DNA of 63,921 bases, filler included, from Malassezia furfur (lineage: Eukaryota), in the NCBI GenBank assembly GCA_052055015.1. It is 3 parts of 3 records of this genome, joined end to end, with 100 filler letters (N's around TTAATTAATTAA, not from the genome) between each part and the next. Parts side by side here need not be neighbours in the genome. Positions count along the whole stretch, not along the records: positions 1 to 21,962 come from JBQJIT010000164.1; positions 22,063 to 43,801 come from JBQJIT010000165.1; positions 43,902 to 63,921 come from JBQJIT010000180.1. One strand, 5' to 3'. The translations under genes were made by a program, and so were the position numbers. Every line of letters begins with the position of its first letter. Within the stretch, counting starts at the first letter, position 1. The notes under the pieces are model-generated. The model was not told the origin of the DNA. It saw only the letters and a program-made list of their open reading frames with translations, and did not search any database. Below, one piece after another: positions 18-63,921 of the stretch.

Positions 18-1211
18 TCGACCCGCTTGGGCCGCTCAGCTTTTTGCACCGCGTCGCCGAGGTGCTGCAGGCCTACCTCGTGGGCACGGACGAAGACGCC
101 TCCCAACTCACCGAGGATCTCGTCCTGGAGCACTTCGACACCGTATACCAGCTCCTCGAGGAGATGCTCGACGCGGACGGCAATGTGCTCGTGACCGAGC
201 CCAACACGCTGCGGGACATTGTGCTGCCGCCCAGCTGGCTCGACCGCCTCGCCAGCACCGTGGGCCTCGGAGGGTACGTCGACCGATTTACGCAGTGCAC
301 TCGACCGCCCGCGGCCGACGTTCGCGTCGCCGGTGCCATGGCGCCGGACGAACAGCAAGTATACAAAGAACGAGGTGTACCTCGACTTTGTCGAGCACCT
401 CGACGCAATCGTCGACCCGACCGGCAAGCCGGTCATGCTCGAGTTGCTGGGGCGCCTCGTGGCCACCACCTGGCTCAATGGCGTGCCGGAGCTCACCGTG
501 CCGCTCACCAAGCCGGCGCTCGTCCAGGATCCGGCCTTCCACCCGTGCGTCCGGCAGAAAAAATGGGCGGCCGCACAGACGCTCAACCTGGTGCCGCCCG
601 ACGGCACGGCCGAGCTTGCATCGTACCGCCTCACCCCCTCGCTCGGCGGCGAGGCCCGCACGCGCGCCTCGCTCGCGAGCATCGACACGACGCTGCCCCT
701 GTTTGTCGATGTCGAATGGGGCGACTGGGACGCCGCACGGGGATCGCACCCATTCACCATCACCGTCGAGTCGCGCCTCGGTGCACCGCGCACGCTCACC
801 GACGTCGCCATCGAGTGGCAGCTCGGCGACTTGGCGCACGGCGTCGATGCCTCGGTGCACGACCGCGGTGTGTCAGCGACCGCCCAGAGCGTGAGCTATA
901 CCCACGAGGCCGAGGACCAGAACGCATCTACTCCGGATGATGCCGTCGTGTTTGACCGTCGGCGTCACTTGCTGCGCTGGACGATCGCGCGTCTTCGGGC
1001 GGGCGCGGCGACCACGTTGCGCGGCACCGTCGCGGCGCACGGCGCGCCGTGCCGGCCGCTGTACGCGCTCCAGATCCGCTTCATGGTGCCAGGCCACTCC
1101 CTCACGGGTCTGCGCGCCAAAGAGATCCAGGTCAGTGGCCCGCCCACCCCGGCGCCCACCAAGGGCGTCCGCAACGCACTCACAGGCACGCTCGAGTGGC
1201 GCCGTCGGTAG
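18..1211 (+). CDS. Adaptor complex medium (mu) subunit, AP-3 mu-like; 5'-partial
   Basis: Motifs VYQLLEEMLD..G..TEPN.LRDIVLPP and PWRRTNSKYTKNEVYLDFVE..DAIVD, FHPCVR, VPPDG. A 22-nt intron (274-295, GTACGT..CGCAG) joins the two ORF frames; an upstream acceptor ends at 17. Confidence 0.8.
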
Positions 1212-1255
1212 TCCCTCCACATTTCCTAAAATGAGCCCTTTTCCTCCTCCACTTG

Positions 1256-2310
1256 CTACGGAGACGCCGAAGGCGCCGTGGAAGCCTGCGTATCGCCGCA
1301 CTTGGCGTTGATCTCCTGATCGAGCTTGGCAAGACGCGTCTCAGTCGCGAACAGAATTCGCGCGCGGCGCTCTTCCAGCTCGTCGGGATCCACCGCCGAG
1401 GAGCCAAGGGTATACGCGCCGCTCCCAGACCGCGCTGGCGGCTCGTACGTCGGCGCCTCCTGCAGCCGGTGCGTGCCGACCGCCTGGGCACGCTCAAACG
1501 CGTCCACCTCGTTGTTCAGCTGGCTGTTGAGCACCTTGAATTCGGGCGGGTGGTCCGAGATCTGAATAAGTGCTTGCGACGTACCTCGTTGTGCGCCAGC
1601 TCGTGCATCAAGACGCGCCGCGTCGTTTTGTAGTCACGCGTGCCGTCCGCAGCGTCGGTGCGGATCCGTAGGAGGATGCGCTGGCCCTTGTTCTCGTTGA
1701 GGCCAAGTAGATTGGGATGCTCATGGGGCAACAGCTCGGTGAGCGTGCCCACCTGGTACCCATGCGCGCGACACACATGCAGCACCGCCGGGTCGTTGGC
1801 CAGTCGTTCCAAGTACCGCAGGACGAGCGCATGGTACCGCTCAGTGGGCTGCGTGCCCGGATGCACAGCAAGCTGTCCAAACACCGCCAGCTGGCTCGGT
1901 GTGGCGGTGGACCGTGGCTGGGTGAGTCGGGTGTTTCCACGTACCTTGGCACCCCGCAAAAGACTCGGATGCAAGGTGCGAGGCGCATGGCGCCTGGCCC
2001 ATGCCGATTCCTGTTCGTGCACCCCTTGCACCTCGTCGTCCGTCGCACCCAACATGGTCAGCACAGCCCCATCGCGTAGTAAGGCGTCGTACAATGTAGT
2101 GTCGGCGGTGATTTGCTGCTGAATCACCTGCGCAAGGCGCGGCATTGTTCCTTCGCGCGTGCGCTGCGCGAGCCATTTTTGGTGTGAGGGGGCCACATGG
2201 GTCAACTGGTATACGTGTTCTTGTAGCTGAAGTACTGTATCGTCGCTGTGCACTGGCACCACGAGCTCCGCGCCGCGGTGGCGCACCCGGATGGTCCACG
2301 CTGCGTGCAT
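1256..2310 (-). CDS. Ubiquitin-like plus WLM (Wss1-family) zinc metalloprotease
   Basis: LLGLNENKGQRILLRIRTD and HELAHN zinc motif. A 23-nt intron (1562-1584) restores HELAHNE-ISDHPPEF. The N-terminus looks ubiquitin-like. Confidence 0.85.
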
Positions 2311-12365: not shown

Positions 12366-12794
12366 ATGTCTTACGGTCAACAAGGTGGTTACGTACGTGC
12401 TTTCGTGGTGAATTCGTACTAATGTGCACAGTATCCCCCCCAGCAGGGCGGTTACCCTGGCGGCGGCTACCCCGGCGGCGGCTACCAGCAGCAGGTCCCT
12501 ATGGGCGGCTCGGTAGGTGACTCCTTGCGCGTCGCATACTAATACCAGGCCCTTGACCAGCGTCGCGCCCGCGTTCAGCAGAAGCGTACGTATCGAGTGC
12601 TTTGTACTGACCATCAGACGGTGCCTGCGGTCCTTGGTACGCATCCCTCCCCACATCTTTCATGCTAACCCCAGCTGCGGTTTCTGTGTCGGTCTCCTGG
12701 CCTGCTGGTACGTACGGGAACGCAGCCAAAGATGCTAACTCGCAGCTGTCTCGAGGACATTGTCTGCGCTGGCTGCCTTGATGCCGTCTTCTAA
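12366..12794 (+). CDS. CYSTM-type small cysteine-rich tail-anchored protein, 81 aa, 6 exons
   Basis: Introns 12393-12431, 12513-12548, 12586-12617, 12637-12674 and 12708-12745 give MSYGQQGGYYPPQQGGYPGGG...GPCCGFCVGLLACCCLEDIVCAGCLDAVF. Confidence 0.82.
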
Positions 12795-12859
12795 TCTCCC
12801 CGTAGTCATTGCACGCAAGTCATTTAGTCTCATCAATTTGATTGGATCCATGCCGTCAT

Positions 12860-14284
12860 CTATTTCTCCTCCTTGTCCTCCTTGTCTAGGGTATCGTTGG
12901 TCAGGCTCCAGCGCCAAAGGGCCAGCGCCGCTTCTTTTGCGTATGGGCCGCACAGCAAGGGCGCATCGGTGTCGTCGCGCGCAGGGCTAGATGTGCCTTC
13001 ATGCACCGCATCCCAATTTCGGGACCCTGCCGTGCTCGCTAGCGTATGCACGTTGCCTGGGCGGAACTGGGCGCTGCCAATGGCGTCTGGGGTTAGCACA
13101 AATACGCACCTGCATGTGCATGCCATTCGAGGCTCGGCGGCACCCACGTCGTACCTGACGTTGGCTGCAGAATGGCGTCCCATGACCAGACATAGATCGT
13201 GCCGCCCTCGTCGCCCGTTACAAGGTAGTCGCCGCCCTCGTCCAGATCGAACCAGAATCGCTGATGGGTATCCGCCGCCGGTCGCGGCAGCTTGGCGAGG
13301 AGCGCAGGGTCCTCGGCGCTCCGTCGCTCGAACGAAAAAGGGGTGCTCGTGCCGTACAGGTAGCTTGTGTCGTACACGTACAGACACGAAGAGCGGCGCG
13401 CGGCAACCACCAGCACGTTGCGCTGCGTGGGGTGCCATGCAAGCTGCGTGACGCCTTTCCCCTCGGCCAGCTGCCAACCGGCAAGGCACATGCGATGCCC
13501 CGGCACCACCTCTGGCGCACCATGGCGGGGCGGATTACCGTATGCATCGTAGACAGTGTCGGTCACACTCGTGAGCCAGTGTGCGTCGATGACATAGAGC
13601 CCAATGGTCCCCGCGAACGTGCCAACAGCGAGAATCTCGAGCGGCCGTCCATCGTTTTCCTCGTCAAAGACGCGCGGCGCCCATCCTGGCGCGAGTGCAG
13701 AGACGATGCCGCTCTGTCCTATACCTGCACTGTCCTGACTCGGGGCCAAGTCCAGTACACTGTGTCGGTTCGCGCCTGGGGTTGCGAGCGGGTAGACCGC
13801 AACGGCGCTTGTCAGTCCGCCGAACAGTCTGGGTAAGTCGAGCACTACGCACCGTGCGCCATCCTTGCTGAACGCGAGCGACGTCGGAGCGATGTACTCT
13901 TCCACATGGTTCACCATGGCGAACGTCGCTTTCGTCTGCCGCGTGAGTGCCTCTCCACGTACGGTGCCTGTGCGCGCATCGACCAAGCGCACGGGCACAT
14001 CGCGGCTGCTTACCGCGAAGCACCAGTGCACCTCGCTATCATCCGAAGCAGCTGGATACATGTACCACTGTGTATCGAGCACGGGTGTGGGCGATCGGTA
14101 CATGCGGAGCAGCTCGAGGTGCTCCTCCGCGACGAGGAAGATATGCAGCGTGTGCGACTCCGCGCGGGCAAGCAGCAAGGTCCCATCGGGCGACCTGCGT
14201 CAGTCTAGCTTCGTACCACTGCGCGCAGCGCCAAAAGCGGTGCACGGGCGGACACGCCGTGTGCAGCACTGGATGCGCCGTCAT
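12860..14284 (-). CDS. WD40 protein, WRAP53/TCAB1/Swt21-like
   Basis: CAQWSPDGTLLL, VSSRDVPVRLVDA, EEYIAPTSLAFS, QSGIVSAL, GVTQLAW, THQRFWFDLD. Introns 14195-14216, 13936-13962, 13829-13852 and 13087-13109. Confidence 0.8.
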
Positions 14285-14343: not shown

Positions 14344-15652
14344 CTATTTCGCATTTTTGGCGCCGGCCGCGTCCGGCGAGCCCGGCAGAGTGATGCGGCG
14401 CTTACGGCCCCAGCCGCGGCGGATCGCAACACGGCGGCGGTCGCGCTCCCACGCGCGGGCCGACGCAAAGCCCGAGCGGCCATAGCGGCCCTCCACCTTG
14501 GTGCGGCGTTCGTCGCCACGGACGCGCGGCGCGTTGCGCACGTAGAACTCCCACGCCAGGCCGTACATTTCGCCGCCGGCCGGGTAGGGAGTCGGGATAT
14601 CTGACTGGAAGACACGCTGCGCGCGCGGCTGCTTGCCGTCCGTGCGGTTGTCGCGCGAGCGCACCAAGTGCGAGGTGAGGGTGGGGTGACGCATGTAGAT
14701 CGCCGAGCACGTGCGGAAGCTCACGTCGAGGTACGGCGGGATGAACAGGAAGGGCGCAGCGAACGGCGGGAGGTGGAACGGAAGCACGCCCGGGGGCAAC
14801 GTCGACTCGGCATTGGCCTGCTTCGCATCCGCCGCGGGGGCCTCGGCGGCGGGCGCGGCAGGCGTGTCCGACGGCTGCTCGGCAGACTGCTCCGCGGCCG
14901 GCTTGGCATCCGCCTCCGCGGCCTCAGAACGCGGCTGCTCGGCGCTGTTCTCGGGTGCCGCGGCCTGGGCGGCCTGGGCGTCCGCCGACGCTTCCGCGGC
15001 AGGCGCCGCGGCAGGCGCCGGAGGCGCCTTAGGTGCGCGGCGGGCGAGGTCCTTTTGCACGCGCTTGGCCACCTGCTTGTTGAGCATCGGCACCGACTCC
15101 GGCTCGACGGTGATCAAGTCGCCCTCCTCGAGGAGCTGGTTGGGGTCCGTGACCACTTGGCCGTTCACCTGCACTTTGCCGTGCAAGACGAGCGAGCGGC
15201 TGTGGTACGCGCTGTGCGCAAAGCAGCAGCGGAACACGACCACATCCAGCCTGCGCTCCACCTCGCGCAGGAACAGGTTCGCGACCGGGGGCACGGGCGA
15301 GTCGAGGGCGCTGCTGGGCGACGCAGGCTGCTTTCCCGGCCGGGCGTTGAGCACGGGTGCAAAGCTCGGGAGGTGTGTCGGGAGGAACCAGCGGCGGAAG
15401 CGCGTCTCTGGGATCCAGTCGCCGTGGTAGCCGCGCAAGAGGCGCTTGGAGCGCCAGCGCTGCTGGTACATGGTCAGGCTGGTCTTGGTGAACGACGTCT
15501 GTCCTGCGAGGAACGGCGTCGCGGACCGGGCAATCAGGTTGTACAGATTACGTGGCGACCATGACTGGAGTGTTAGTGGCCGGGGTGCGTGGTGCCGCAC
15601 GTACCATGCGCGGGATCGCCGATTCCGGGCGAAACACGTTCGCCTTCCTCAT
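14344..15652 (-). CDS. NAM9: Mitochondrial ribosomal protein uS4m (Nam9)
   Basis: RMSWSPRNLYNL, YQQRWRSKRLLRGYHGDWIPE and S4 domain ERRLDVVVFRCCFA..HGKVQVNG. One 40-nt intron (15565-15604). Confidence 0.9.
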
Positions 15653-15930: not shown

Positions 15931-17135
15931 ATGTCGCACAAGTTTGAGCTTCCTGAGGGCCACTTTTTGTTCACGTCGTACGTATTGCTGCGGCGTACCA
16001 GGTGTTAACCAACAGCGAGTCGGTTGGTGAGGGCCACCCCGACAAGATCTGTGACCAGATCTCGGATGCGATTCTCGACGCTGCGCTGGAGCAGGACCCC
16101 TTCTCGAAGGTCGCCTGCGAGACCGCGGCCAAGACGGGTCTGATCCTCGTGTTCGGCGAGATCACGTCGAAGGCGAACATTGACTTCCAAAAGGTGATTC
16201 GCAACACCATCAAGGAGATTGGCTACGACAACTCCGAAAAGGGCTTTGACTACAAGACGTGCAACGTCATGGTCGCCATCGAGCAGCAGTCGCCCGACAT
16301 TGCCCAGGGTCTGGACCACGGCAACCTGGAGGCGATCGGTGCCGGTGACCAGGGTATCATGTTTGGCTACGCGACGGACGAGTCGCCCGAGCTGATGCCG
16401 CTCACCGTCACCCTCTCGCACAAGCTCAACCACGCCATGTCGGCCGCGCGCCGCGACGGCTCGCTGCCCTGGCTCCTGCCCGACACCAAGACGCAGGTGA
16501 CGGTCGAGTACAAGAAGGACAACGGTGCGGTGGTGCCGCTGCGTGTCGACACCGTGGTTGTCTCGACGCAGCACACCGACGACATCACCACCGAGGAGCT
16601 CCGTGAGAAGGTCAAGTCGGAGATCATTGAAAAGGTCATCCCTGCGAACCTGCTCGACGAGCGCACCGTGTACCACATCCAGCCGTCGGGCCGCTTTGTG
16701 ATCGGTGGCCCCCAGGGCGATGCCGGTCTGACGGGCCGCAAGATCATTGTCGACACGTACGGCGGCTGGGGTGCGCACGGCGGTGGTGCGTTCAGCGGCA
16801 AGGACTTCTCCAAGGTGGACCGCTCGGCGGCGTACACGGCGCGCTGGATCGCCAAGTCGCTCGTGGCCGCGGGCCTGGCGCGCCGTGCGCTGGTGCAGCT
16901 GTCGTACGCCATCGGTGTGGCCGAGCCGCTCTCGGTGTTCGTCGAGACGTACGGCACGAGCAGTAAGAGCGATGCGGAGCTCGTCAAGATCATCCGCGAC
17001 AACTTCGACCTGAAGCCCGGTGTGATTGTGCGCGACCTGCAGCTGCAGCGCCCCATCTACCGCCAGACGGCGTTTGGCGGCCACTTTGGCCGCCCCGAGT
17101 TCACCTGGGAGCAGCCCAAGAAGCTCCAGTTCTAA
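15931..17135 (+). CDS. SAM1: S-adenosylmethionine synthetase
   Basis: [56 protein letters not shown]. One 38-nt intron (15978-16015). Confidence 0.98.
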
Positions 17136-28088: not shown

Positions 28089-28151
28089 TTCGTAGCAGCC
28101 AGTGTATGGCCAACCGCTCACAAAGTAGAGCATATTGTTAAAATTGCTCCA

Positions 28152-43901: not shown

Positions 43902-44585
43902 GAGCATGTGCGGCGCCTGGCCGCTCGGCGACGCCGGCGACGCCGCTGGGCTCCGCCTCGTCCGACACCGTGCGGAGCGTGGGCTTCGGCGCGGGCTCCA
44001 CGGCCGGCGGCGGGCCACGCACCGACCACGGCTGCTCGGTGGTCACCTCAGGCTCCGCCTCGGCGGGGGCCGCCACGGCAGGGGCCGACGTCGCCGCACT
44101 GGCGTCGGCGCCGGCGGCGCCGGCCGTCGGGGTGATGGTCTCGCCGAGGTAGCGCGGGGCGTAGTTGCCCTCCGGAATCGACGTCTCGGCGGCGGTCGAG
44201 CGCGCCAGCGCACTGCCGTACGTCTCGCGCGGCGTCAGGTAGGTGGTGTCCTGCGTGACGTTGGCTCCGCTGCGGAGGATGCTGGAGAGGTCGTAGTTCT
44301 GGATCGCGGGCGCGGGCTTGCTGCGCTCATCGTAGTCCGGAATGCGCGCTGTGTGAGTTGCGATGCGGGCGACGTACTGTGCGTGATCGGCACCGACTCG
44401 CTGACGAGGTGGTGGTCCGACGACTCGACGACCGCCGGCGTCTCGGTGGTGTACACGGTGGTGGACACCGGGTTGCTGTCGGCAACCGCGGCGCTGGTCT
44501 GCGACACGCTCGTGGTGTCGGCCGTCTGCTCGGCGGCGGTGGGGGAAACGATCTGGCTAACCTCGGTGGCTTCGGTGGTCGACAT
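43902..44585 (-). CDS. Hypothetical Thr/Ala/Glu-rich protein; 3'-truncated by the gap
   Basis: ATG 44585 and a 29-nt intron (44349-44377) give a frame that stays open up to the gap. Confidence 0.55.
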
Positions 44586-45110: not shown

Positions 45111-45473
45111 CTATCCGCCGTGCAGCGTACTAATAAACACTATGTGGTCCTTGGGCTGCAGTACATAGTCCATCTCGCCCTCCAGCTCCCAATCGCTGTC
45201 GTTGATCAGCACAAGGATGCCCGCGCGCCTGCGTCAGCTTACCACGTACACCGCGTCGTGCTCCACAAACAGCTCCTCGCGCTCGTGGAGGAGGTGCGTG
45301 CGGATGTGGTGCACGAGCGCACGCATGTCCGGCGCACGGCCCGCGTCGCCCTGCACCGTCAGCGTGTGCACCTTGGCGTGCGGGGGCGCCAGGAGCAGCT
45401 CGGTGCCGCCGCTGCGTCGTCAGCCGCGCACGTACCCAAATTCCACCGTGACCGGCACGCCGTCCTCGCCCAT
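45111..45473 (-). CDS. URM1: Ubiquitin-related modifier Urm1, 3 exons
   Basis: [38 protein letters not shown]. Introns 45412-45435 and 45229-45249. Absent from the ORF track. Confidence 0.95.
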
Positions 45474-48606: not shown

Positions 48607-50177
48607 ATGAGTGTGGGGCAGGAAGATGCCATCGGACGCGCGTCCGAGCGGATCTGCAAACACATGAACCGCGACCATGACGTGCGTGGTCTCACTGACC
48701 CCAGGACGCGGTCGCGCACCTCGCCATGTTCTACGCACACCTCCCGCGCCTGCCGCAGTGGGCGCGCATGGAGTCGATCGACCGCACCGGCATGCGCATT
48801 CGGTATGCGCCGCCGTCGCTCGCGGGGCCCGTCACCGACGAGAGCGCACTGCCCGTGCAGACGATCGCATTCGACCCACCGCTCCAGGGCACCACCGACA
48901 CACGCAAGCGGCTCGTCGCGATGAGCGAGGCGAGCCAGGCCGCGAACGCACAGTTCGCACGCGCAAAGCACGCGCGCGACTTCTGGGGGGAGTACAACCT
49001 CGAGACGCTCCTTGAGCGCGCCGACGGCGTGCTGATGCACCGCGCGACGCTCGGTGCGCTGCTCGCGCTCGCCTACGCGCTCGTGCGCGCACCGACTCCG
49101 CCCGCATCCGACGCGCGTGCGCCCTGGCTGGCCCAGGGCGTGTACGGCGTGCATCGGCTCCTGCACCTGGCCGCGGCGCCGCTGATGCTGCTCCTTGTAC
49201 CGCTCGCCGTGGTGCTGGCCGTGCGCGGCGTCGGCTGGCTGAGCCGCACGTGGACCAACGCGGCGCCGGTGCCCGCCGAGCCGCGGCGCCTCGCGTCCTG
49301 GGCCTGGACGACGCTCACTACGCCGACGCTCCCCCGGCTCGACCGGAACGCCTGGAACCACGAGACGGTGGTGATCACGGGCGGCGCGCGTGGCTTTGGC
49401 GCGGAGCTGGCGCTGCGGCTCTCGCAGAAGGGCGCGCGCGTCATCACGCTCGACGTCGCCAAGACGACGGTGAAGCACCCCAACCTCGTCGCATACCACT
49501 GCGACATCTCGCGGCAGAACGAGGTGTTTTCCGTCACGCGCAACATCCTGTACCGGCACGGCGCGCCGACGATCCTCATCAACAATGCGGCGGTGCGCAA
49601 CGGCCACCCATTGCTCGACACGCCCGTGGGCGACATTGCGCGGGTGCTGGACACCAACACCATGGCGCACTTTTGGACGCTCAAGGAATTCCTCCCTTCG
49701 ATGGTCGAGAACAAGCGGGGGCACATTGTCACCGTGTCGTCGATGATGGGCCAGACGGGCGTCGCGCAGATGATCGACTACGTCGCATCGAAGCACGCGC
49801 TCGTCGGGCTGCACGAGTCGCTGCGCTTCGAGCTGGATGCGATCTACCGCACGCCGCTGGTGCGCACGACGCTCGTCACCACGGGGCACCTGCAGGAGAC
49901 AAGCATGTTCTCGGGCATCCAGTACAATGCGTTTGCGCGCTTCCTCGCCCCGCCCGTGAGCACCGCCAAGGTCGCGCATGCGGTGATCGACGCACTCGAG
50001 TGCCAAGAGAGCCGCATCGTCGCCATCCCTTGGTACGCCGCCTGGACGCTGTTCCTGCGCGTCCTGCCGTCGTTCGTGCGCGACGGCATCCAGGCGCTGC
50101 TCGGCGCAAACCACTCGATGACCACCGCGCCCAAGCCCCCGCGCGAGGGCGAGCGCGCTCCGGAGGAAGCTACATAG
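48607..50177 (+). CDS. DUF2470-like domain fused through TM helices to a membrane SDR (Tda5/17-beta-HSD11-like)
   Basis: RICKHMNRDH..MESIDRTGM..IAFDPPL..RKRLVAM, then VVITGGARGFG, LINNAA, YVASKHALVGLHESLRFEL. One 23-nt intron (48682-48704). Confidence 0.82.
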
Positions 50178-50180
50178 GCT

Positions 50181-50894
50181 CTACGGCGCGCCGCGCGGGT
50201 CCGGCGTGTACCGCAGGTAGGGACGCACCGTGCGGAAGCCGGGGAACAGCTGGGCGGCCTCCGCGTCGGCGACCGTGGGGTGCACAATCACCTCGTCGCC
50301 CGGCTGCCAGTTGGCCGGCGTCGTGACGCGGTGTGCGTCGCCGAGCTGCAGCGAGTCGATCGCGCGCAGGATCTCGGGGAAGTGCCGGCCGGTGGAGGCG
50401 GGGTAGGACAGCTTCAGCCGGATGAGCTTCTTGGGGTCGATCACAAACACGTCGCGTACCGTGAACGGCATGCCCGCCGCGTCGCGGTTCGTCGGGTCGA
50501 GCGCGTCGAGCATGTCGTACAGCGTCGCGACCGTGCGATCCGGGTCGCCGATGATGGGGAAGCGCAGCGGTGTGCCGCCGATGTCGTTGATGTCGTCAAT
50601 CCACGCGCGGTGCGACGCGACGTCGTTGGCCGACAGCCCAATCACCTTGACACCGCGGCGCGCAAACTCGGGCGCAAGGCGCGCGACCTCGGCGAGCTCG
50701 GTGGTGCACACCGGCGTAAAGTCGTCCGGGTGCGAAAAGAGGATGGCCCATGCATCCCCGATCCATTCATGGAAGTGCACGCGCCCCCTGCGTCAGCACG
50801 GCCGCACCTACTGCGTCGTGTCCGCGGCAAAGTCGGGCGCAACCGAGCCGAGGCGCAGCGCGGCCGGCCGCCCCGGCGGCGAAACGTGGTCCAT
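50181..50894 (-). CDS. PRX1: 1-Cys peroxiredoxin
   Basis: LRLGSVAPDF, LFSHPDDFTPVCTTEL, YPASTGR, TTPANWQPG. One 24-nt intron (50788-50811). Confidence 0.95.
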
Positions 50895-51700: not shown

Positions 51701-52093
51701 ATGGCCCCGAGTCCAGAGCGCGAGGCAGCTGACCCCGACTGGATCCGCCAGTACAAGGAGATGGCGTCGGGGCCACACACGGATACGCCAAGCGTCAGGC
51801 GGACCTTGCCGGCGTACTTGGATGACGAGGTGGAAAAGCAGCCGATCCCGTCGCCGTGGCAGCAAGTGATCCAGGCCAACCTATCGACCGACAGCGTGAC
51901 ATCCTCGGAAGCGTTGGAGCGCGAGCAGGATCGACTCGCCCTACAAGAATGGGACGAGGGCGTGCGCCAGCTGCAGATGGCATTCCAGCTCGTGCTGATC
52001 CCGTTCTTCGGGAGATGGATCGGACGGCGTTGGAGCTATTGGTGTACGTCGTCCGTTTCTCACACAGTCTTTGCGCGGTACCTGCAAGGATAG
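51701..52093 (+). CDS. MIM2: Mitochondrial import protein Mim2-like
   Basis: QEWDEGVRQLQMAFQLVLIPFFGRWIGRRWSYW..RY. One 24-nt in-frame intron (52044-52067). Confidence 0.75.
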   Translation: MAPSPEREAADPDWIRQYKEMASGPHTDTPSVRRTLPAYLDDEVEKQPIPSPWQQVIQANLSTDSVTSSEALEREQDRLALQEWDEGVRQLQMAFQLVLIPFFGRWIGRRWSYWCTSSVSHTVFARYLQG

Positions 52094-54854: not shown

Positions 54855-55547
54855 TTACATTTCACCGCATTCTGGGGTCAGTGCGACATGTCGACGACGT
54901 ACCTGCAATTTTGACTTCTAGGCGAGGCCGGTTGTTCGCGCCCATCGGGACGTTTTCGATTTTGCGGAGCGTGAGCATGCCATCAATGACCTGGTATGAG
55001 CATGCCGCTGGTGACCCACCTTGCCAAACACGACGTGCTTTCCATCGAGGAAATCGGCCGGCTGGGTCGTAATAAAGAATTGACACCCGTTGGTGTTGGG
55101 GCCCGAGTTGGCCTGGGTAAGCAGGCCGTGGGCGACGTACCATGCTGAGAAGACCTGCGGCATCGTGCTTCATCAGGAAATTCTCGTCGTCGAACTTGTC
55201 GCCGTAGATGCTGAAACTGCCGGTGCCATCGCCGTTGAGGAAGTCGCCTCCCTGGCACATAAAGTCTTTGATCACACGATGGAAAATCGAGCCCTTGTAT
55301 CCCATCGGCTTGTGGTTGAACCTGGGTCAGACCAAGAGACATGCCTGTGTTCGCCCGTGCACAGCTGCCGGAAGTTCTCCGCAGTCCTGACGTTAGTATA
55401 CGCCTGAACGTACTTGGGTGTGAAGTCGGAGAAGAGCTCAAACTTGATACGGCCCACGGGTGTCTCTCCGATCGTTATGTCGAAGAAGACGACGGGACGA
55501 CCATTCATACCTGCACCGTTCAGCTTCGGAGCCGGCGCCGTCGACAT
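54855..55547 (-). CDS. Cyclophilin-type peptidyl-prolyl isomerase (CypH/PPIH-like), 6 exons
   Basis: [49 protein letters not shown]. Introns 55387-55413, 55322-55344 (GC-AG), 55113-55140, 54991-55019 and 54872-54902. Confidence 0.93.
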
Positions 55548-55634: not shown

Positions 55635-56305
55635 ATGTTCGGTCGCACATGCTTGCCGCGCGGGCCCACTCTTGCGCACCTCGCTCGCGGTGCAGCAGTT
55701 CCGCGCATTCAATATGCTGCGCGCGTGGCCTCTATGCCTTATACGACTTCGGTTCCGCGCGCACGAAGGGACCAGCCGTGCGTACCTTGCGTCCTAACGC
55801 AGTGACGATCTCGATTTCGACAACCCCTTGTCCAACATTCTTGAGGACGACACGCTACCCATCCGTATTGCCAAGGTAACTGCTAAGGAGATCAAGCTCG
55901 CAGATGGACTCGTCGTTCCTTCGCCCTGTATCTTTCTGAACGGCAAAGTCTTTCTTTGGAATCCACCCAAGATCGACCCCATGACCGCGATGCCCAACGG
56001 CAAGGGCTGGGAATCTTGGGTGAATGATATTTGGTCTCTCTTTGAAGTTGTTGTGCCTCGTCCAGGTGCGTAGCGCCGCTGCTGGCGTACTTACGCCAGA
56101 AATCCTCATCCTAGGCACTGGCAATACTGTATTGCCTGTCCCCAACCACATCAAGACGTACTTGAACTCGCTGGGGATCCAGTTGGATGTGCAGAATTCG
56201 GTACGTCACTCCAGTACTGACATGCAGCGGAATGCCTGTTCGACGTACAATTTGCTGTCGGAGGAAGGGAGATCTGTTGCGGCCGCCATCCTCCCATCGC
56301 CATGA
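55635..56305 (+). CDS. NDUFAF3/Mth938-domain complex I assembly factor
   Basis: Presequence-like N-terminus, PRPEILILGTG, RNACSTYNLLSEEGRSVAAA. Introns 55778-55802, 56066-56099 and 56201-56227. Confidence 0.88.
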
Positions 56306-56361: not shown

Positions 56362-58001
56362 CTACGATATCTTTACAAGCTCAATCATCCTCACACGGAA
56401 GTAGTCGATGAGCAGAATTGATGGCCATGCACCAATAAGTCCAATACCGGTATAGATCAGTAACCGGGGGCCGTCTTCGTAGGTCAGCTGGCGCTGCATA
56501 CATACCAACACAAACTTTCTCATCCACCGACGCCCACGTAGAGATGTGCAAGTCGTTCGATTTTGGCGAAGACGCAGCGGTATCCTTCCCCGCATTGGGA
56601 CGACGACGCAGCTGACCCTTGGTCTCCACATCACGACCGGACGCTGCCGACTCCGCCGCTGCAGGTACTGGGCGCAGTTGCACCTGGCTCTTTCGCAAGT
56701 GCCTCACCACCGCCATATACATGGCAGGAAAAGCCTTTTTGATGGGTGAACTTGCAATCACTTTGAAGAGGACAATGGGAACGATGCCTGGTATTAGCAA
56801 TGCCAACCGGCACTTACCGAATGAGAGGTTGGCCAAAAGTTTCAGATAATCATGGCTGACCGCCTGGAACCAAAGAGATTGGCACGTTGCTTGAGCAGAC
56901 ATCGGCATCCAAGAAGTGATCCAGCGGAAGGTGGCATCCATCACGGCCATGTCCGCATAATAATCCGAGTTCGTGCGCCAGTTGCCCAGACAAACACCCG
57001 TCCATGCACCAACGAAGGCGACCGCTGGTCATGAGTAAGTTGAATACATACCGTCCTCATAGCATGGGCATGGTCCCACGGGCGGAATATGAATAGCGAG
57101 GGACAAACATGCTGCACCAAAGATCACCACTGGCACTGCATGGTCAGTCCGGAAGAATGGATACAAACCGTAAAAGTTTTGGTCCAGCAAGAAGTCGCCG
57201 AGTTTCGGGTCGATCCAGATCGCAAAGAGCGCCACAGAGACACCAATGCAACAGCCTGCGAAACAGTCTGCTGGTTAGTTGCACACCGTCATCAAACGTA
57301 CCCAATGCACTGTGCATCCCAGAATAGAGCCGGCCATACACAATCGTCCAGGCATAGAGCAGGATCAAACCCTCCATCAAGTAGGTCTCCGCAAACCAGT
57401 AGGTAAACATGGGATGGTCATCAGAAAAAACAGCGAGAACATAGGGTCGGGCCATTTCCACAAGGTAGTAGAAAAATATAGCCATCCCCACACTGTTAGC
57501 AGAATGTGTCGAAGGGAATCCATATTCGAGATGATGTGTGCCGATCACTAGCCTGCGAACTGGCGGGGATGCTGGTCGAGGGACACAGAAGAAGTCCTGA
57601 GAAGTGTCAGAATGCCGCTCTTTCCCATCTATACGAACCTTGATGAAGGCCGTAATGTAGACGGCAAGGGCGGAGGTTAAGATCAGACTGAGGATGAGCA
57701 CATGTCAATTTCGTACATTCGGCCAACAGAGTCTCCCCCGATTTGATAGACAAGGGGCAAGAACAGCATGAAGAAAGTGTGTGTACCCAGCACGGACGAG
57801 TACTTGAAGTACGAATCTAGCCATGGGTGTTGGACTTTCGCCTGGGCAACGTGGTCAGCACCGATCCTTCTAGCGGTGCGCAGCACTTACCTGATGCGTA
57901 GCAAGACTCTGCGAATGGTTCAGCACATATCGGTTCAAATAGTTCCGGACCCCTACAGCGAGAGCCGGACGGTTCGCACGGAACACTTCATCCTCGCTCA
58001 T
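56362..58001 (-). CDS. PAP2-family sphingoid-base phosphate phosphatase (Lcb3/SGPP-like), 8 exons
   Basis: LGTHTFFMLFLP, KDFFCVPRP, EYGFPSTHS, GRLYSGMHS, PCPCYED. Seven introns of 27-49 nt. Confidence 0.85.
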
Positions 58002-58055
58002 GGTGGGAGATCTCCACATTGAAAGCCAGTCCAAGCCAGCCAAGTCAGTCACACA

Positions 58056-58640: not shown

Positions 58641-59673
58641 ATGAGCAACTCGGAGACCAAGCCATCTGAGTAAGTACCCGACCTTTGCCATTCAAGATCT
58701 AACCTCTAGACTTGAACGCTTGAGCGATTCGGAGCGTCTTGACCTTGGCCAGAAGCTTCTGGACGAGGAAGGTGCTGATCGCCCTCTCATTTCCGAGGTT
58801 GAGCCGCTCGACGTCCTCCTCCAAGAGTACGCCAAGAACCGCCAGTTCCTTGGCAAAGTCAAGTGGCTCAAAGAGAAGTCGGACTTTATTGGGATCCGTC
58901 GGTTGAAAGGGGATGGAAACTGTTTCTACCGCGCGTTCGGCTTCACCTATCTGTACACGATCTTGACCATGGACGATCGTCCTTTGCACCATTTCGCGGG
59001 CCAGCATGTTGACTCCTTGCTGGAGCTGCTGAAGCAGACCGGGTACGACGAAGGTGTGGTGAAGGAGTTCTATGAGCCGTTCCAGGACCTCATGGGCCAG
59101 ATCCACTCGACCGATCCCTCGCGACCGGCGCTGACGGTTGATCGGCTCGTGGAGGCTTTCAACGACCCCGAGAAGAGCAACAGCATTGTGGTCTTTCTCC
59201 GCATGATCACGAGTGCCTTCCTCAAGGTATGTTGACTATCCGGTGCGCTGACCGCACAGACGAATGCGAATGACTACACGCCGTTCTTGGTGTCGGCGAC
59301 CGGCAGTGACGACCCGCCGACGATGGAAGAGTTTGCCAATCGTGAAGTTGAGGCGTTTGGCAAGGATGCGGACCACCTTCAGATCACGGCGCTGTGCACG
59401 GCGCTGAAGGTCACCCTGGACGTCGTGTACCTCTCCAGTGCGCATGCCCCGCCGGAAACCGAGCCGGTGGGCGAGGAGGCTGAGGCAGCGAGCGACATGC
59501 CTGGGAACAAAGAGGAGGTGCCCAGCAGTGATCCGAATGCGTGCGATGTGGTGCGCTTTGATCTGGACCAGGGGCAGATGTTCAACGTGGGCCACCTCCT
59601 GTACCGCCCCGGTCACTTTGACCTGTTGGTCGCCAAGTCGGAACCGGATTCCCCCGATGTCAGCATCGAGTGA
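58641..59673 (+). CDS. Otubain (OTU, peptidase C65) deubiquitinase
   Basis: RRLKGDGNCFYRAF, DADHLQITAL, LLYRPGHFDLL. Introns 58670-58709 and 59227-59259. Confidence 0.92.
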
Positions 59674-60885: not shown

Positions 60886-62638
60886 TTACAGTGTGACAAA
60901 GTGCTCCTGCTCCTCGTCGGTGCGGGGCGCCGGCTTTTTGGCGCGCAGGCGCGCCTTGGGCAGGCTCGACGCCGGCGCCTCGTGCCGCGCGAGGAGGCGC
61001 GCGGTCGACGACGAGCGGCGCGCGGCGTCGCTCTCGCGGTGCGGCGCGTTCCGCCGCGGCGTCGGCTCACCCCGCAGCGTCGCCTGCGCAATGCGCAGCG
61101 TCTTGGCCGCGAGGCTGTTCTCGTCGAACTCGCTCGCGAACTTGGCCTCGAGACCATCGGGCGCGGCGGGCGGCGCGGTGGGCGGCGCGACGTCCATCGA
61201 CGCGATGCGGTGCTCCTGCGCGTCCGCCTTGCGCTTGCGCTGCTCGCACTCGGCCCGCTCGCGGCCGTAGCGCGCCTCGACATGGTAGCCGACCGAGCGT
61301 GGGTCGCTGGAGGCGAGCATCTCCTGCCCGCCCGGCACGACGTACGACGGCGCGGACGTGTGGCCGACCTCGAGGCCGCCGAGGCCGGGCGTGTGCGACG
61401 GGGTGCGCCGGCGCGAGGGCGGCGCCTGCGCCGCCATCTGGGGGTTGGGCCGGCCAAGGACGCGCGCGGTGCTGGGTGAGGCGGCCGACGTACCCTGAAG
61501 CGAACTCCATGCGCGAGCGCAGGCGCCCCGTGACGGCCTGCTCGAGGTGGTAGTCGCACACCTCGTTATTGGTGCCGCGCACGACAAACGCGTTGCAGCG
61601 CTTGCCGTCCTTCTTGCGCGCGGTGCACTGTGCGTAGGCGTCGGCCTGCCCGATGACGAGCACCGCGTCGCCCGAGCGCGGCGTGACGGTGACGAGGTTC
61701 TTGGGTTGCTGTGTGAGCGGGGAACGTACGCCCTTGCGCGGCTTGAGGATGCGGGGGTTGAGGATGGCCAGCAGCGCACCGTCGCGCTCCTTCCAGAGCT
61801 TCGCAAAGGCGCTCGCCTCCTCTGCTGCGCCGCGCTGGCTCGGCGTGTCGTCAAAGAGGAGCATGTGCAGCACGCAGTCGCCCGGGAGCTGCCGATGCTT
61901 CTGCACCACGTCGGTATTTAGGTCGAGCAGCTTGCACCCGAAGAACTTGCGCGCGGGGCGCACGGGGTTGGCGCGCTCGAACGCCGTGCCCTCCTGCGGC
62001 GCGTCCGGCCGGTCGTCGGCGGGCGCGGCGGTGTACCGCAGGGTGCTCTTTTCGCCCATCACGGCGAACAGGACCCAGTCGCCGTACAGCGGCATCTCGA
62101 GGTCGCCGTCCATGGCGCCGTGCGTGGGCGCTTCGTACTCGGCCGTGGAGCCGGTGCGGTGCACGAGCGAGTAGAAGAGGCTCGGGGTCACGACGTAGCG
62201 CGCATCGAGGTACGCCTCGAGCTCGGCGTGCGCGAGGCGGCGCGAGCGCAGCGCCGTGCGCGCGTTCGGCTCGTACGTGCGCAGCTCCGGGTCGTCGGGG
62301 CGCGGCGCGTACGGGCGCGGCCCGCGCGCGAGCTCCTCGACGAGCTCCAGGCGCTCGTTGCGCGCGTCGGGGTGGGCGCGCCGCCCGAACGACGCGGAGC
62401 GCGAGGCCTCGCGTGCCGCGCGCTCGTTGCGGCGCGTGTGGTGGTCGTCCTGGTGCTGCTGCACGTGCGAGGCACACGCGGTGAGCGAGGAGGCGGGCGC
62501 GTGCTGCATGCGCTCTGCGCGTGCGTGTGCGTGCGCGAGGGCCGCCTTGCGCTGCTGCTCGAGCTCGGCTGCGTGAGCGGTGCACGTACCGACGCCGGCT
62601 GCCGCGGCGCGTGCGAGCGCCGCGCGGTCCCCCGCCAT
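60886..62638 (-). CDS. MCM10: Replication factor Mcm10-like
   Basis: GDWVLFAVMGEKS, LAILNPRILKP and zinc finger CTARKKDGKRC..CDYH. Introns 62569-62589, 61709-61729 and 61472-61493. Confidence 0.8.
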
Positions 62639-62765
62639 GGCGCGTCGGAACGTGACTGGGTGGAGGCGCACGCGGTGCGGGCCGGGGGTGCGGCGCAAAT
62701 ATCTTGCGGCGGCTGCCGCGGGGCGCGGCTGGGTTGAGCCACGACGGCGAGTGCGGTGCTTTGCG

Positions 62766-63921
62766 ATGCTCTCTGCACCCGACCCGTATCCGGCCGTGTC
62801 GAACCAGAATCCGGCGCCGGATGACGCGCAGATCGAGAGCAAGACGCCCGAGATCTGCGTGGACTATCTGAGCCACGAGTGGAAGGACGAAGATGTGTGG
62901 AACAGCTGGAAGGCGATGACCAAGCGCAAGAACGAGATCTCCAACGGCCTGCGCCTCGAGAACGCCAGCTGGCGCACCTGGGCGAAGCAGCGCGGCAAGC
63001 TCAAGACGGTGAGCCCCGAGACGCTGAACTGGTACGTGGCGCGCTGACGCAGGTTGAAAGAGAGCGACGTCACCTGGCTCTATGGGCCGCTGCACGGCGA
63101 GGCCAAGCCGGTGCCGCCGCCCAAGGTCGCGACCACCGCGGAGCGCCTCGGGATCGACGACCACACGGGCAAGAAGTCGATCCTGAAGCACCGCACGCTC
63201 ACCGACCTGCTCCAGCAGCCCCGGACGCTCTCCCCGGCGAGCGAGGCCGAGGAGCCCGAGGATGCCTGGAGCAAAAAGTCGGAGCTGCACACGGTGCGCT
63301 CCGAGGTGCACCTCGCGCACCCCACGGACCTGCGGCGCCGGTTAGGCTCGCCGGACCTCGAGCGCAACGTCGCCGCGGAGCCGGCCGAGGCCAAGGCGCG
63401 GCGGCACATCTCGTTCAACCACCGTGTGGAGCAGTGCGTCGCGCTGGACTATACCGGCCCCGTGTCGTCGGACGAGGAGACGAGCGCGTCCGAGGCGTCG
63501 GACGCCTCCGACGACGACGCGCCGCCCTCGCGCCGCAGCAGCACCACGAGCAGCGAGCCGCCCGCGTCGATCGCGCGGCTGGAGCCGACGCAGCTCAAGA
63601 CGCCGCACGAGTTCCACCTGCAGACGTCGCCGGTCACTCACCTGTCCGGCTTCATGGACAGCGACGACGACTCGTACGACGACGAAGACGCACGCTACTC
63701 GGTCGCCGACCCCGTCCCGGTCACGCAGGACCTCGCGTTGGACCAGGACGGGTACGACTACTATGCGTCCGACGAGGAGTATGACGGCGCATCGGCGCCC
63801 TATGTCCAGTCCGTATCCAACACCGCCCCCGGCGTTTCCTCTGCAACACATGCTAACCCACCGCCCTCTGCACCCCCGCACGCCTCCCGCTTGGACGCTG
63901 TAGACACCACCACGCCGCCTG
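62766..63921 (+). CDS. Reg1-like PP1 regulatory subunit (DUF1752); 3'-partial
   Basis: VDYLSHEW..DVWNSW, RLENASWRTW, PETLNWLKESDVTWLYGPL, RHISFNHRVEQCV. One 21-nt intron (63032-63052). Confidence 0.85.

Follow-up and report, generated by a model that had tools for sequence, protein, structure and literature searches.

The short introns in a 63,921-nucleotide stretch of Malassezia furfur DNA (the 64-kb window) are very probably, judging from their sequence, ordinary major-type (U2-type) spliceosomal introns that have shrunk nearly to bare splicing signals. It is a sound conclusion that those of 21–25 nt are genuine and are among the shortest introns of any fungus.

Intron set and length distribution

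Candidate introns were collected across the 64-kb window by scanning with a motif and with a PWM, by analysing reading frames and by curating the results manually. The curated set covers introns up to about 45 nt, and three candidates of 56–59 nt were left out. Our own scan, limited to 40 nt, gave 61 candidates of 21–40 nt, among which 39 were 21–25 nt long (21 nt, 8; 22 nt, 13; 23 nt, 9; 24 nt, 4; 25 nt, 5). The longer candidates were distributed as 27 nt, 5; 28 nt, 1; 29 nt, 3; 30 nt, 1; 31 nt, 2; 32 nt, 1; 33 nt, 1; 34 nt, 1; 36 nt, 1; 38 nt, 3; 39 nt, 1; and 40 nt, 2. An earlier sequence-only reading had counted 64 introns, with 39 at 21–25 nt, 14 of 22 nt and 8 of 21 nt, and the rescan closely reproduced these numbers. 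The span given there, 274..63052, corresponds to the limits of the rescan list (first intron 274–295, last 63032–63052), and both of its example sequences were found in place at 34482–34503 and 63032–63052.

No credible intron shorter than 21 nt was found in the 64-kb window by motif scan, PWM scan or curation, in keeping with the earlier statement that none was shorter. A 19-nt match at 24042–24060 was rejected as an intron, lying in frame within an EH-like coding stretch. The sub-21-nt options at 57268–57301, which would give 16 or 19 nt, arose just from weak alternative donors inside an intron of 31 or 34 nt. The 21-nt floor is based on 61 introns from one 64-kb window.

Splicing signals and putative branch position

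The candidates started with GT in 60 of 61 cases and with GC in one, and all 61 ended in AG (CAG 53, TAG 8). The commonest donors (n = 61) were GTACGT (30), GTATGT (9) and GTGCGT (6), and the commonest putative branch boxes were CTGAC (17), CTCAC (13), CTAAC (9) and CTTAC (6). In 21- and 22-nt introns the layout was GTACGT, a spacer of 6–7 nt, CTNAC, one base and CAG. The putative branch A lay at position 16 in 8/8 introns of 21 nt and at position 17 in 12/13 introns of 22 nt, and nowhere in the 61-intron set did it lie earlier than position 16 from the 5′ end. Of the 60 introns in which a branch box could be recognised, 33 had exactly 5 nt after this A. Because the pyrimidine content of the spacer was 55%, no pyrimidine tract is present. 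The anatomy described before, with the branch A at 16–17, 5 nt from the 3′ end and no pyrimidine tract, was thus recovered.

Strand bias and chance expectation

A stricter motif gave 19 matches of 21–25 nt; 50 first-order Markov resamplings put the chance expectation at 3.3. Gene strands were assigned by Pfam matches and codon scores. With a looser motif, 37 matches of 21–25 nt were in sense orientation within gene territories versus 1 antisense or intergenic, and all matches of ≤30 nt were divided 56 to 7 in the same way; these counts are to be read with the + strand gene at 12.1–12.9 kb in mind, which became apparent as a gene only once its intron motifs had been noticed. The PWM scan, which is not independent of the motif matches because the PWM was trained on 49 of them, gave 40 sense versus 8 other matches at 21–25 nt but 20 versus 19 at 12–20 nt, showing no strand bias below 21 nt; the enrichment therefore sets in sharply at 21 nt. 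Consensus alone supports ten introns, whose lengths are multiples of 3 without an in-frame stop, and three 5′-region candidates. A few of these consensus-only introns may be chance matches, as the null gives about 1–3 in the size class.

Reading frames and conserved proteins

The lengths of 40 of the 61 candidates were not multiples of 3; every one of these introns links two frames. Among the other 21, an in-frame stop was present in 10 under automatic phase choice; for 55387–55413, which that choice had listed as open, a stop was present in the hand-read phase. Homology confirmed 23 introns, including 5/8 of the 21-nt introns and the example at 63032–63052, and exon-exact Pfam matches were continuous across 8 introns. 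A 60-residue exon showed 100% identity to two M. furfur proteins at NCBI, which identifies the 64-kb window as M. furfur and bears out the earlier assignment to Malassezia. Strand bias, restored frames and homology all agree with the earlier reading of these segments as introns, so far as sequence can tell.

The cyclophilin H gene (− strand) carries five introns. The junction of the 27-nt intron (55387..55413) is gap-free in homologues and equals that of the NCBI M. furfur protein P0022. The 23-nt GC-AG intron (55322..55344) is the sole frame-restoring solution, with a junction matching P0022 and orthologues. PF00160 positions run from 93 to 94 across the 28-nt intron (55113..55140) and from 126 to 127 across the 29-nt intron (54991..55019), and removal of the 31-nt intron (54872..54902) restores a conserved C-terminus common to orthologues. 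All five junctions of the model were gap-free in 46/120 homologues, and the model equals P0022 at every junction, with one residue differing.

Five introns likewise restored the orthologue alignment of the D-Tyr-tRNA deacylase (DTD) gene (− strand), where some of the supporting orthologues, being Malassezia sequences too, are predicted gene models. After the 22-nt intron at 39295..39316, at a junction common to Malassezia orthologues, the next exon starts at PF02580 position 15. Across the 21-nt intron at 39049..39069, which has an in-frame stop, the profile positions are 74, a split codon and 76. The 21-nt intron at 38884..38904 is gap-free against annotated Malassezia orthologues, and an unspliced Logan ORF has 7 additional residues at this site. 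Removal of the 23-nt intron at 38816..38838 restores the conserved block after "VND", also found in M. pachydermatis; a 15-nt micro-exon (38801..38815) follows, and the 22-nt intron at 38779..38800 restores the frame, giving a C-terminus that agrees with orthologues.

Profile positions also joined across other introns. In the Urm1 gene (− strand), the 24-nt intron (45412..45435) has a length divisible by 3 and contains an in-frame stop, and the next exon starts at PF09138 position 8; across the 21-nt intron (45229..45249) positions run on without a break (56 plus 1, split codon, 59). The 23-nt intron of a DUF2470/SDR gene (48682..48704, +) joins positions 12 plus 1 and 14. In the DUF498 gene (+ strand), a frameshift-restoring 25-nt intron (55778..55802) is followed by introns of 34 nt (56066..56099; positions 53, split codon, 55) and 27 nt (56201..56227; 86 plus 1, then 88). 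The otubain gene (+ strand) has a frameshift-restoring 40-nt intron (58670..58709) and a 33-nt intron with an in-frame stop (59227..59259), across which PF10275 positions run from 149 to 150. The PF19117 match of the Mim2 gene stops right at the donor (position 37/45) of a 24-nt intron (52044..52067, +), whose length is divisible by 3 and which lacks an in-frame stop. Downstream of the 38-nt frameshift-restoring intron of the S-adenosylmethionine synthetase gene (15978..16015, +), whose removal restores the N-terminus, the exon begins at PF00438 profile position 7.

Three SDR paralogues (+ strand) contain seven introns bounded by tblastn matches of Malassezia SDR homologues. In paralogue 1, the matches break off and restart at the edges of the 22-nt intron at 25475..25496, homologue residues 205 and 207 flank the 23-nt intron at 26059..26081 with a split codon between, and the 21-nt intron at 26128..26148 equals a 7-residue gap relative to three homologues; a 22-nt intron at 26394..26415 restores the frame (PWM scores 7.6 and 5.2; atypical branch box). 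In paralogue 2, homologue residues 1–7 precede and residue 8 onward follows the 22-nt intron at 26652..26673, and the last 15 (C-terminal) residues pick up after the 25-nt intron at 27509..27533. A weakly supported 22-nt intron in its 5′ part (26578..26599) fits the consensus, with the homologue N-terminal match starting just 3′. In paralogue 3, the match breaks off and restarts at the 23-nt intron at 28237..28259, and residues 289 and 291 flank that at 29089..29111, with a split codon between; two 25-nt candidates in the 5′ region (28104..28128 and 28160..28184) are consensus-only.

Both examples of the sequence-only reading could be placed in genes. Retention of the 21-nt intron of the AreA-N-domain gene (63032..63052, +) would lead to an in-frame TGA being read, and the spliced junction was gap-free in 77/84 homologues spanning it. 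Support for the 22-nt intron of the L-serine dehydratase gene (34482..34503, +) is indirect: the upstream exon, collinear with the solved chain 4rqo_A, ends at its residue 464/476, and splicing gives 17 codons and a stop, versus a frame continuing into the Nup54 gene when unspliced. In the AP-3 mu-like gene, a 22-nt frameshift-restoring intron (274..295, +) separates exons matching the solved chain 9c58_M collinearly (exon 1, residues 74–145; exon 2, 162–265; 15 versus 16 residues between). Removal of two frameshift-restoring introns of the inositol monophosphatase gene (− strand; 25 nt, 37162..37186; 22 nt, 36485..36506) extends a 66-aa ORF to 342 aa; exon 2 aligns with IMPA1 residues 36–228, and the short exons 1 and 3 had no PDB match.

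Further introns were called from frame and consensus. The frame is restored by a 23-nt intron in the HIR1-like gene (23725..23747, −; ORF 414 to 594 aa), a 40-nt intron in the S4-domain gene (15565..15604, −; 375 to 422 aa), and introns of 29 nt (44349..44377, −; 116 to 218 aa) and 22 nt (38610..38631, +) in two genes of unknown family. In the WLM-domain gene (− strand), a 23-nt intron (1562..1584) restores the frame (longest ORF 264 to 343 aa), and a 27-nt intron (1918..1944), with full consensus on the sense strand, is consensus-only because it is a multiple of 3 without an in-frame stop. The small Cys-rich protein gene (+ strand) becomes a single ORF once five introns are taken out: two with lengths that are multiples of 3 and in-frame stops (39 nt, 12393..12431; 36 nt, 12513..12548) and three frameshift-restoring (32 nt, 12586..12617; 38 nt, 12637..12674; 38 nt, 12708..12745). 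The WD-repeat gene (− strand) likewise gives a single ORF of about 470 aa without two frameshift-restoring introns (22 nt, 14195..14216; 23 nt, 13087..13109) and two consensus-only ones, both divisible by 3 in length and free of in-frame stops (27 nt, 13936..13962; 24 nt, 13829..13852). Removal of the 24-nt intron of the 1-Cys peroxiredoxin gene (50788..50811, −), which is divisible by 3 in length and contains an in-frame stop, restores the N-terminal motif. In a small membrane protein gene (+ strand), a 21-nt intron with full consensus (41844..41864) has a length divisible by 3 and contains an in-frame stop, and a 22-nt intron (42095..42116) restores the frame. The PAP2 phosphatase gene (− strand) has two frameshift-restoring introns (29 nt, 57688..57716; 34 nt, 57268..57301, or 31 nt ending at 57271, the acceptor being ambiguous), a 27-nt intron of a length divisible by 3 that contains an in-frame stop (57025..57051) and a consensus-only 30-nt intron, also divisible by 3 but lacking such a stop (56788..56817). 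In the Mcm10 gene (− strand), for which a PDB search gave no match, a 22-nt intron (61472..61493) restores the frame and two 21-nt introns are consensus-only (62569..62589, a multiple of 3 with no in-frame stop, and 61709..61729).

Public gene models

The expectation that gene finders misannotate such genes was borne out by missing exons in public models. The NCBI model "cyp3 [M. furfur]" is without a 14-codon exon, and the cyclophilin H models of M. nana and M. caprae are without another exon. Among DTD models, that of M. brasiliensis skips the 15-nt micro-exon and that of M. nana is without a conserved block.

Discussion

We infer that these segments are excised by the spliceosome and that the marked A serves as the branch point. 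The whole intron would most likely be recognised as one compact unit, that is, by intron definition. The branch box would have its fixed place 3 nt upstream of the terminal AG, with a pyrimidine tract playing no part. The 21-nt floor adds up from two separate minima: the putative branch A is at position 16 or later from the 5′ end, and normally 5 nt separate it from the 3′ end.

Very short introns have been documented in Malassezia before, which makes the finding largely known. Curated introns of M. sympodialis have a mean of 30 bp, with RNA-seq support for 99% (PMC5389616, Table 2), and introns of M. restricta have a median of 30 bp, the annotation having used a minimum intron length of 15–20 (PMC9241646, PMC6473144). 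The public M. furfur protein P0022 already uses five introns of the present set. The earlier reading, which did not say whether such an extreme in Malassezia was documented, stands as to the reality of the short introns; as something new they are not supported. None of the papers found in our literature search described a mode at 22 nt, a floor at 21 nt or an anchored branch.

The earlier reading had suggested that U1 and U2 would be unlikely to occupy such introns together in the usual geometry, and that the spliceosome may accordingly be adapted. No snRNA genes were found in the 64-kb window. Myxozoans (median intron 22 bp) and Stentor (15–16 bp) are reported to have canonical U2 and U2AF (PMC13644364), so shortness by itself does not point to an altered machinery.

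Sense-strand enrichment and length distribution of ultra-short introns

The window (63,921 bases, 50-70% GC) was gene-dense, with about 42 gene territories, many of them identified by Pfam matches on open frames. Genes named from Pfam encode AP-3 mu, SAM synthetase, HIR1, L-serine dehydratase, Nup54, inositol monophosphatase, D-Tyr-tRNA deacylase (DTD) and Yju2, and further named genes were those of Urm1, peroxiredoxin, PABA synthase, cyclophilin, otubain, RPAC1, Mcm10 and three tandem short-chain dehydrogenases (SDRs). A 60-residue cyclophilin exon showed 100% identity with two NCBI Malassezia furfur proteins, and its runner-up named matches came from other Malassezia species. The sequence-only reading of this DNA had guessed Malassezia, and the identity of the cyclophilin exon indicates that this guess was right.

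Ultra-short introns were searched for with patterns of different stringency. The strict pattern (GT[AG]NG[TC], a CT[AG]A[CT] box, then AG) had 19 matches at 21-25 nt, compared with 3.3 expected from 50 first-order Markov resamplings. The matches of a looser pattern were classed by the strand of the host gene. At 21-25 nt, 37 lay on the sense strand and 1 was antisense or intergenic, and for all lengths up to 30 nt the tally was 56 sense versus 7 other; the + strand gene at 12.1-12.9 kb was counted as antisense in this tally, which touches only matches of 32-39 nt. A position-weight matrix (PWM) scan, with donor and 3′ end scored separately, gave 40 sense versus 8 other matches at 21-25 nt; the matrix was trained on 49 earlier motif matches, and the scan is not fully independent. 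At 12-20 nt, the same scan gave 20 sense and 19 other matches. Because no sense-strand excess was found under 21 nt, the excess starts abruptly at 21 nt.

Hand curation, which covered introns up to about 45 nt and excluded three candidates of 56-59 nt, resulted in 61 candidate introns of 21-40 nt. Eight of them were 21 nt long, 13 were 22 nt, nine were 23 nt, four were 24 nt and five were 25 nt, so that 39 of the 61 fell at 21-25 nt and the other 22 at 27-40 nt (mode 22, median 24, mean 26.1, minimum 21 nt). The density was about one intron per kb (61 in 64 kb over about 42 gene territories), with up to five introns per gene. The sequence-only reading had reconstructed 64 introns, 39 of them at 21-25 nt and eight at 21 nt, and the present counts are nearly identical; its 14 introns of 22 nt were matched almost exactly, by 13. 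Its statement that none is shorter than 21 nt agrees with both the curated minimum and the PWM scan, and its two examples, 34482-34503 (+, 22 nt) and 63032-63052 (+, 21 nt), were found at these coordinates. Judged by sequence analysis, the observation of ultra-short introns is confirmed, far beyond chance, and the interpretation attached to it is partly supported.

Ab initio dynamic-programming gene models, in which free GT..AG introns up to 200-300 nt were allowed, were dropped for length statistics because spurious long introns fused adjacent genes in the GC-rich DNA. A local frame-switch scan using the codon score only was dropped as too noisy (638 candidates, then 116 clusters), and a "longest ORF" criterion was blind to multiple-of-3 introns and to short terminal exons. 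The matches at 8362-8383 and 35804-35829 and the nested match at 39049-39074 were removed before the consensus was built. The 26-nt segment at 55252-55277 matched the motif but was discarded, being conserved cyclophilin coding sequence. Among shorter candidates, 24042-24060 (19 nt) was in frame inside an EH-like coding stretch and was used by no model, and the 18-20-nt matches at 39295, 45412 and 50788 had weaker donors, were nested in 22- or 24-nt introns and gave the wrong frame. At 57268-57286, options of 16 and 19 nt shared their frame with a 31/34-nt intron. An intron below 21 nt at this place may be compatible with the sequence, though its donor is weaker (PWM score 4.8 versus 7.6).

Anatomy of the candidate introns

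The introns began with GT in 60 of 61 cases and with GC in one, and all 61 ended with AG. The most common donor was GTACGT (30 of 61), followed by GTATGT (9) and GTGCGT (6), and the single GC donor was GCATGT. A YTNAY-type branch box was present in 60 of the 61 candidates, most often as CTGAC (17), CTCAC (13), CTAAC (9) or CTTAC (6), and the acceptor was CAG in 53 and TAG in 8. For most candidates, GT[AG]NG plus a branch box was a requirement of the scan, and this consensus is partly built in. In their ends, donors, branch boxes and restored frames and proteins, the candidates belong to the major (U2-type) GT-AG class.

The presumed branch A was at position 16 in 8/8 introns of 21 nt and at position 17 in 12/13 introns of 22 nt, and never before position 16. 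It was followed by 5 nt in 33 of the 60 introns with a branch box, so that A and AG were 3 nt apart; 6-8 nt followed in 25, 4 nt in one and 9 nt in one. In introns of 21 and 22 nt, donor hexamer and branch box were just 6-7 nt apart, and in longer introns the added length sat in the 5′ spacer between them. No pyrimidine tract is present, because the spacer was only 55% pyrimidine. Position +4 was C in 35 of the 49 training introns. A branch A at position 16-17, only 5 nt from the 3′ end and without a pyrimidine tract, is what had been described from the sequence alone, and these features hold in the proportions given. Since the branch A never came before position 16 and was usually followed by 5 nt, the 21-nt floor is better described as two floors, 16 nt for the part between 5′ end and branch and 5 nt for the part between branch and 3′ end.

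Reading frames and homology

The anatomy of the introns, the frames that they connect and the proteins restored by their removal can be read directly in the window. The lengths of 40 of the 61 introns were not multiples of 3, and each of these introns connects two frames. Among the 21 with multiple-of-3 lengths, an in-frame stop was present in 10 by automatic phase; the intron at 55387-55413 has a stop in the phase read by hand, though the automatic choice of phase called it open. About 10 multiple-of-3 introns had no in-frame stop. These ten introns, along with three 5′-region candidates, have the consensus as their basis, and a few of the thirteen may be chance matches.

Homology independently backed 23 of the 61 introns, and collinearity with solved chains backed two more. 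With exon-exact references, Pfam profile positions were unbroken across eight introns. They passed from 149 to 150 over the 33-nt intron of otubain, from 93 to 94 and from 126 to 127 over the 28-nt and 29-nt introns of cyclophilin, and from 74 through a split codon to 76 over a 21-nt intron of DTD. They were likewise continuous over a 21-nt intron of Urm1, the 34-nt and 27-nt introns of a DUF498 gene and the 23-nt intron of a DUF2470 gene.

Cyclophilin H required five introns, of 27, 23, 28, 29 and 31 nt. The 23-nt intron at 55322-55344 (-) is the GC-AG intron with the sole non-GT donor among the 61, and it agrees with the public M. furfur protein P0022 (NCBI). The product of the five-intron model was identical to P0022 bar one residue, and all five junctions were gap-free in 46 of 120 homologues. 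DTD also required five introns (22, 21, 21, 23 and 22 nt), and their removal restored the alignment to Malassezia orthologues. A 15-nt micro-exon at 38801-38815 (-), placed between the 23-nt intron and a 22-nt intron of this gene, codes a conserved block. Public models share these introns: P0022 has all five of cyclophilin H, and the M. brasiliensis DTD model has 3 of the 5 of DTD. In the SDR paralogues, tblastn matches of homologues flanked seven introns, one of which, of 21 nt, corresponded to a 7-residue gap relative to the homologues.

When the 21-nt example at 63032-63052 was retained, a TGA was read; when it was removed, two conserved blocks were joined, and the junction had no gap in 77 of the 84 homologues spanning it (drawn from the 87 proteins of at least 250 residues among the 150 matches listed). 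For the 22-nt example at 34482-34503, the upstream exon stops at residue 464 of a solved L-serine dehydratase of 476 residues. Spliced, the frame gives 17 further codons and then a stop; unspliced, the enzyme is fused to the nucleoporin repeats of the neighbouring gene. These features indirectly support 34482-34503 as a putative intron. The frames joined across 274-295 matched successive parts of the AP-3 mu chain, residues 74-145 and 162-265. A PDB check of inositol monophosphatase exons 1 and 3 gave no matches, and neither did that of the Mcm10 exon upstream of 61709-61729.

Consequences for gene annotation

That gene finders would misannotate many such genes was also predicted from the sequence, and faulty public models of cyclophilin and DTD bear this out. 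The NCBI protein "cyp3 [M. furfur]" (P0021) was called with a single 92-nt intron, skipping a 14-codon exon, and the cyclophilin H models of M. nana and M. caprae miss another exon. The M. brasiliensis DTD model (P0001) skips the 15-nt micro-exon, and that of M. nana is without a conserved block. In several Malassezia species, conserved blocks are missing from public models of conserved proteins because 21-25-nt introns, 15-42-nt micro-exons and the occasional GC-AG donor mislead default gene finders and read mappers. For annotation or RNA mapping in Malassezia skin yeasts, a minimum intron length of 20 or less is needed.

Other features of the window

A single open frame of 1,304 codons at 32362-36273 (+) spans the genes for serine dehydratase and the Nup54-like protein together with the spacer between them; long open frames in such GC-rich DNA are no evidence for a single gene. 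At 21963-22062 and 43802-43901, which are filler between the joined records, there are four masked N runs, each 44 bases long, within or beside coding regions. They touch the DUF3818/HIR1 boundary and an unnamed - strand gene, and the gene models there are incomplete. A long T run at about 45480-45520 (-), immediately upstream of the Urm1 start codon, translates as a run of Phe codons. The small Gly/Tyr/Gln-rich protein with a Cys-rich tail encoded at 12250-12860 (+) has five introns of 32-39 nt in about 450 bp, clearly longer than the 21-25-nt class, with branch boxes of the CTAAC or CTAAT kind.

The three tandem SDR paralogues are in a lower-GC stretch (about 53-59%) at 25300-29450. No named NCBI M. 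furfur protein was among their matches; the closest named match was from M. psittaci (56% identity), and one Logan ORF was 100% identical. The cluster may vary between strains or may have escaped annotation. An AT-rich island at 58050-58520, about 450 bp long and flanked by the PAP2 and otubain genes, had 15-17% GC, compared with 50-65% in the surrounding DNA. Core centromeres of M. furfur are 168-721 bp long with 15-27% GC and lie at chromosomal GC minima (PMC7025860, Table 2). The island fits this description and is probably a centromere core.

Recognition of the introns and alternative explanations

In the simplest reading, the introns would be removed by ordinary major-spliceosome splicing and would have been cut down to bare signals. 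They would be recognized across the intron (intron definition), and the branch box, anchored beside the acceptor, would make a pyrimidine tract unnecessary. We infer this mode of recognition, and a lariat at the marked A, from the arrangement of the signals. Removal by some other machinery, such as a tRNA-type endonuclease or Ire1-type cleavage, would suit the size of the segments, which is like that of some non-spliceosomal introns. It is hardly credible for segments that carry the marks of spliceosomal introns, namely GT-AG ends, a U1/U6-type donor and a CTRAY-type branch box at a fixed distance, and whose explanation requires no hairpin or bulge-helix-bulge pattern. The segments could also be no introns at all, being retained sequence, assembly errors, pseudogene frameshifts or sites of translational recoding, and the related-strain Logan/ENA ORFs P0004, P0033 and P0035 do read through some of them. 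Such ORFs, however, are what prokaryote-style ORF calling on genomic DNA yields. The common GT..CTNAC..YAG build was concentrated on the sense strand (the 37 versus 1 at 21-25 nt), 11 introns with in-frame stops add to the 40 that alter the frame, and the segments are present in conserved housekeeping genes (SAM synthetase, cyclophilin H, DTD, Urm1 and peroxiredoxin), where their removal gives gap-free alignments. Conservation thus contradicts this explanation, which we regard as extremely improbable. If splicing used more distant sites, the short segments would be pieces of longer introns that skip tiny exons. Public models are built in this way, with the 92-nt intron in P0021 and a 60-nt intron in the M. 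brasiliensis DTD model P0001, and codon-score dynamic programming likewise favoured the 60-nt solution for DTD. The skipped exons, however, code residues that are conserved in orthologues from other genera and in P0022, the five cyclophilin H junctions align without gaps, and Pfam positions run unbroken over the short introns. Splicing at more distant sites is therefore very unlikely.

The sequence-only reading had gone further and proposed an adapted spliceosome, with introns that are real but so short that U1 snRNP could not bind at the same time as U2 or the branch-site factors in the usual geometry. Early recognition parts would then be altered or missing in M. furfur. The gap of just 6-7 nt between donor hexamer and branch box in the shortest introns, the lack of a pyrimidine tract and the sharp floor at branch position 16, which resembles a steric limit, argue for it. 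So does the frequent C at +4, which mismatches the usual 5′ end of U1. Possible co-adaptations include a U1 5′ end or U6 pairing fitted to GUACGU, branch recognition free of a tract reader, for which a large U2AF subunit without tract reading is a candidate, and sequential binding with a hand-over from U1 to U2. Two spliceosome proteins, cyclophilin H and Yju2, have apparently normal orthologues encoded in the window itself, which weakly argues against adaptation; Rfam and tRNA scans of the window had no matches, and no snRNA gene was found there. In the available portion of PMC13644364, canonical U2, U2AF1/2 and spliceosome parts are reported to be kept by myxozoans, whose median intron is 22 bp, and by Stentor, with introns of 15-16 bp. 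Moreover, according to the part of PMC2483917 at hand, the tract is absent in most fungi, and the branch is anchored in Yarrowia, Trichomonas and Giardia. An adapted spliceosome thus seems doubtful for these introns, and we would only tentatively take the 16 + 5 rule as the hard steric limit of a co-adapted spliceosome, which is rather unlikely. Ordinary splicing of minimal introns is much more probable. The donor hexamer, the 6-7 nt, the anchored branch box, CAG and the 16 + 5 nt floor together form a testable minimal-intron rule in a culturable yeast with about one ultra-short intron per kb. M. furfur is transformable, with Agrobacterium tools cited in PMC7025860. If the adapted spliceosome were true, M. 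furfur would be the first genetically tractable yeast for dissecting the minimal intron, which is hard in ciliates, nucleomorphs and myxozoans.

Comparison with known short-intron systems

Short introns are already known for the genus Malassezia. The curated annotation of M. sympodialis lists 5,350 introns that average 30 bp, 99% of them supported by RNA-seq (PMC5389616, Table 2; Zhu et al., 2017), and their lengths are given as a cumulative plot (Figure S8 of the same paper). In M. restricta, 2,150 introns average 37.2 bp, the median being 30.0 bp (PMC9241646, Table 1), minimum intron lengths of 20 and 15 were used in annotation (PMC6473144), and a review states that Malassezia genes have "very short introns" (PMC7426719). 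These species share the genus, the compact genome and the short introns with M. furfur. The portions of these sources at hand give means, medians and one cumulative plot, whereas the window has a median of 24 and a mode of 22 nt. Neither their text nor the other full-text literature searched describes a mode at 22 nt, a floor at 21 nt, a GTACGT donor or a branch anchored 3 nt from the AG for Malassezia; subscription journals, figures and supplements may contain such an account. The precise anatomy and the floor seem undescribed. In the available part of PMC13644364, Malassezia is absent from a 2026 list of lineages with introns below 30 bp.

Introns of about 25 nt in Paramecium, 19 nt in the Bigelowiella nucleomorph, a median of 22 bp in myxozoans and 15-16 bp in Stentor are given in the accessible parts of PMC13644364, PMC2483917 and PMC5014332. 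Ciliates, the Bigelowiella nucleomorph, Microsporidia, dicyemids and myxozoans have narrow length distributions of 15-30 nt with a sharp lower bound, as in M. furfur. With a mode of 22 and a minimum of 21 nt, the window belongs with the ultra-short lineages, which have a mode below 30 nt and a sharp lower bound. M. furfur, however, is a culturable, GC-rich (64.9%) basidiomycete yeast, which sets it apart from ciliates, organelle remnants and obligate parasites. Stop-free multiple-of-3 introns are depleted in Paramecium. Multiple-of-3 introns were not depleted in the window (21 of 61, about 10 of them stop-free), although this sample is small.

The anchored branch has its closest parallels elsewhere. 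The distance from branch to AG is 2 nt in Yarrowia lipolytica and 4 nt in Trichomonas and Giardia (PMC2483917; Irimia and Roy, 2008), and the part of that paper at hand describes in these species, as found in M. furfur, a strong CTRAY-type box, a fixed short distance to AG and no pyrimidine tract. They are intron-poor and their introns are mostly much longer, with medians of apparently 104 nt in Trichomonas and 204 nt in Yarrowia (table in PMC2483917), whereas the window has about one intron per kb. In M. furfur, unlike in these species, minimal size extends beyond the 3′ end to the intron as a whole.
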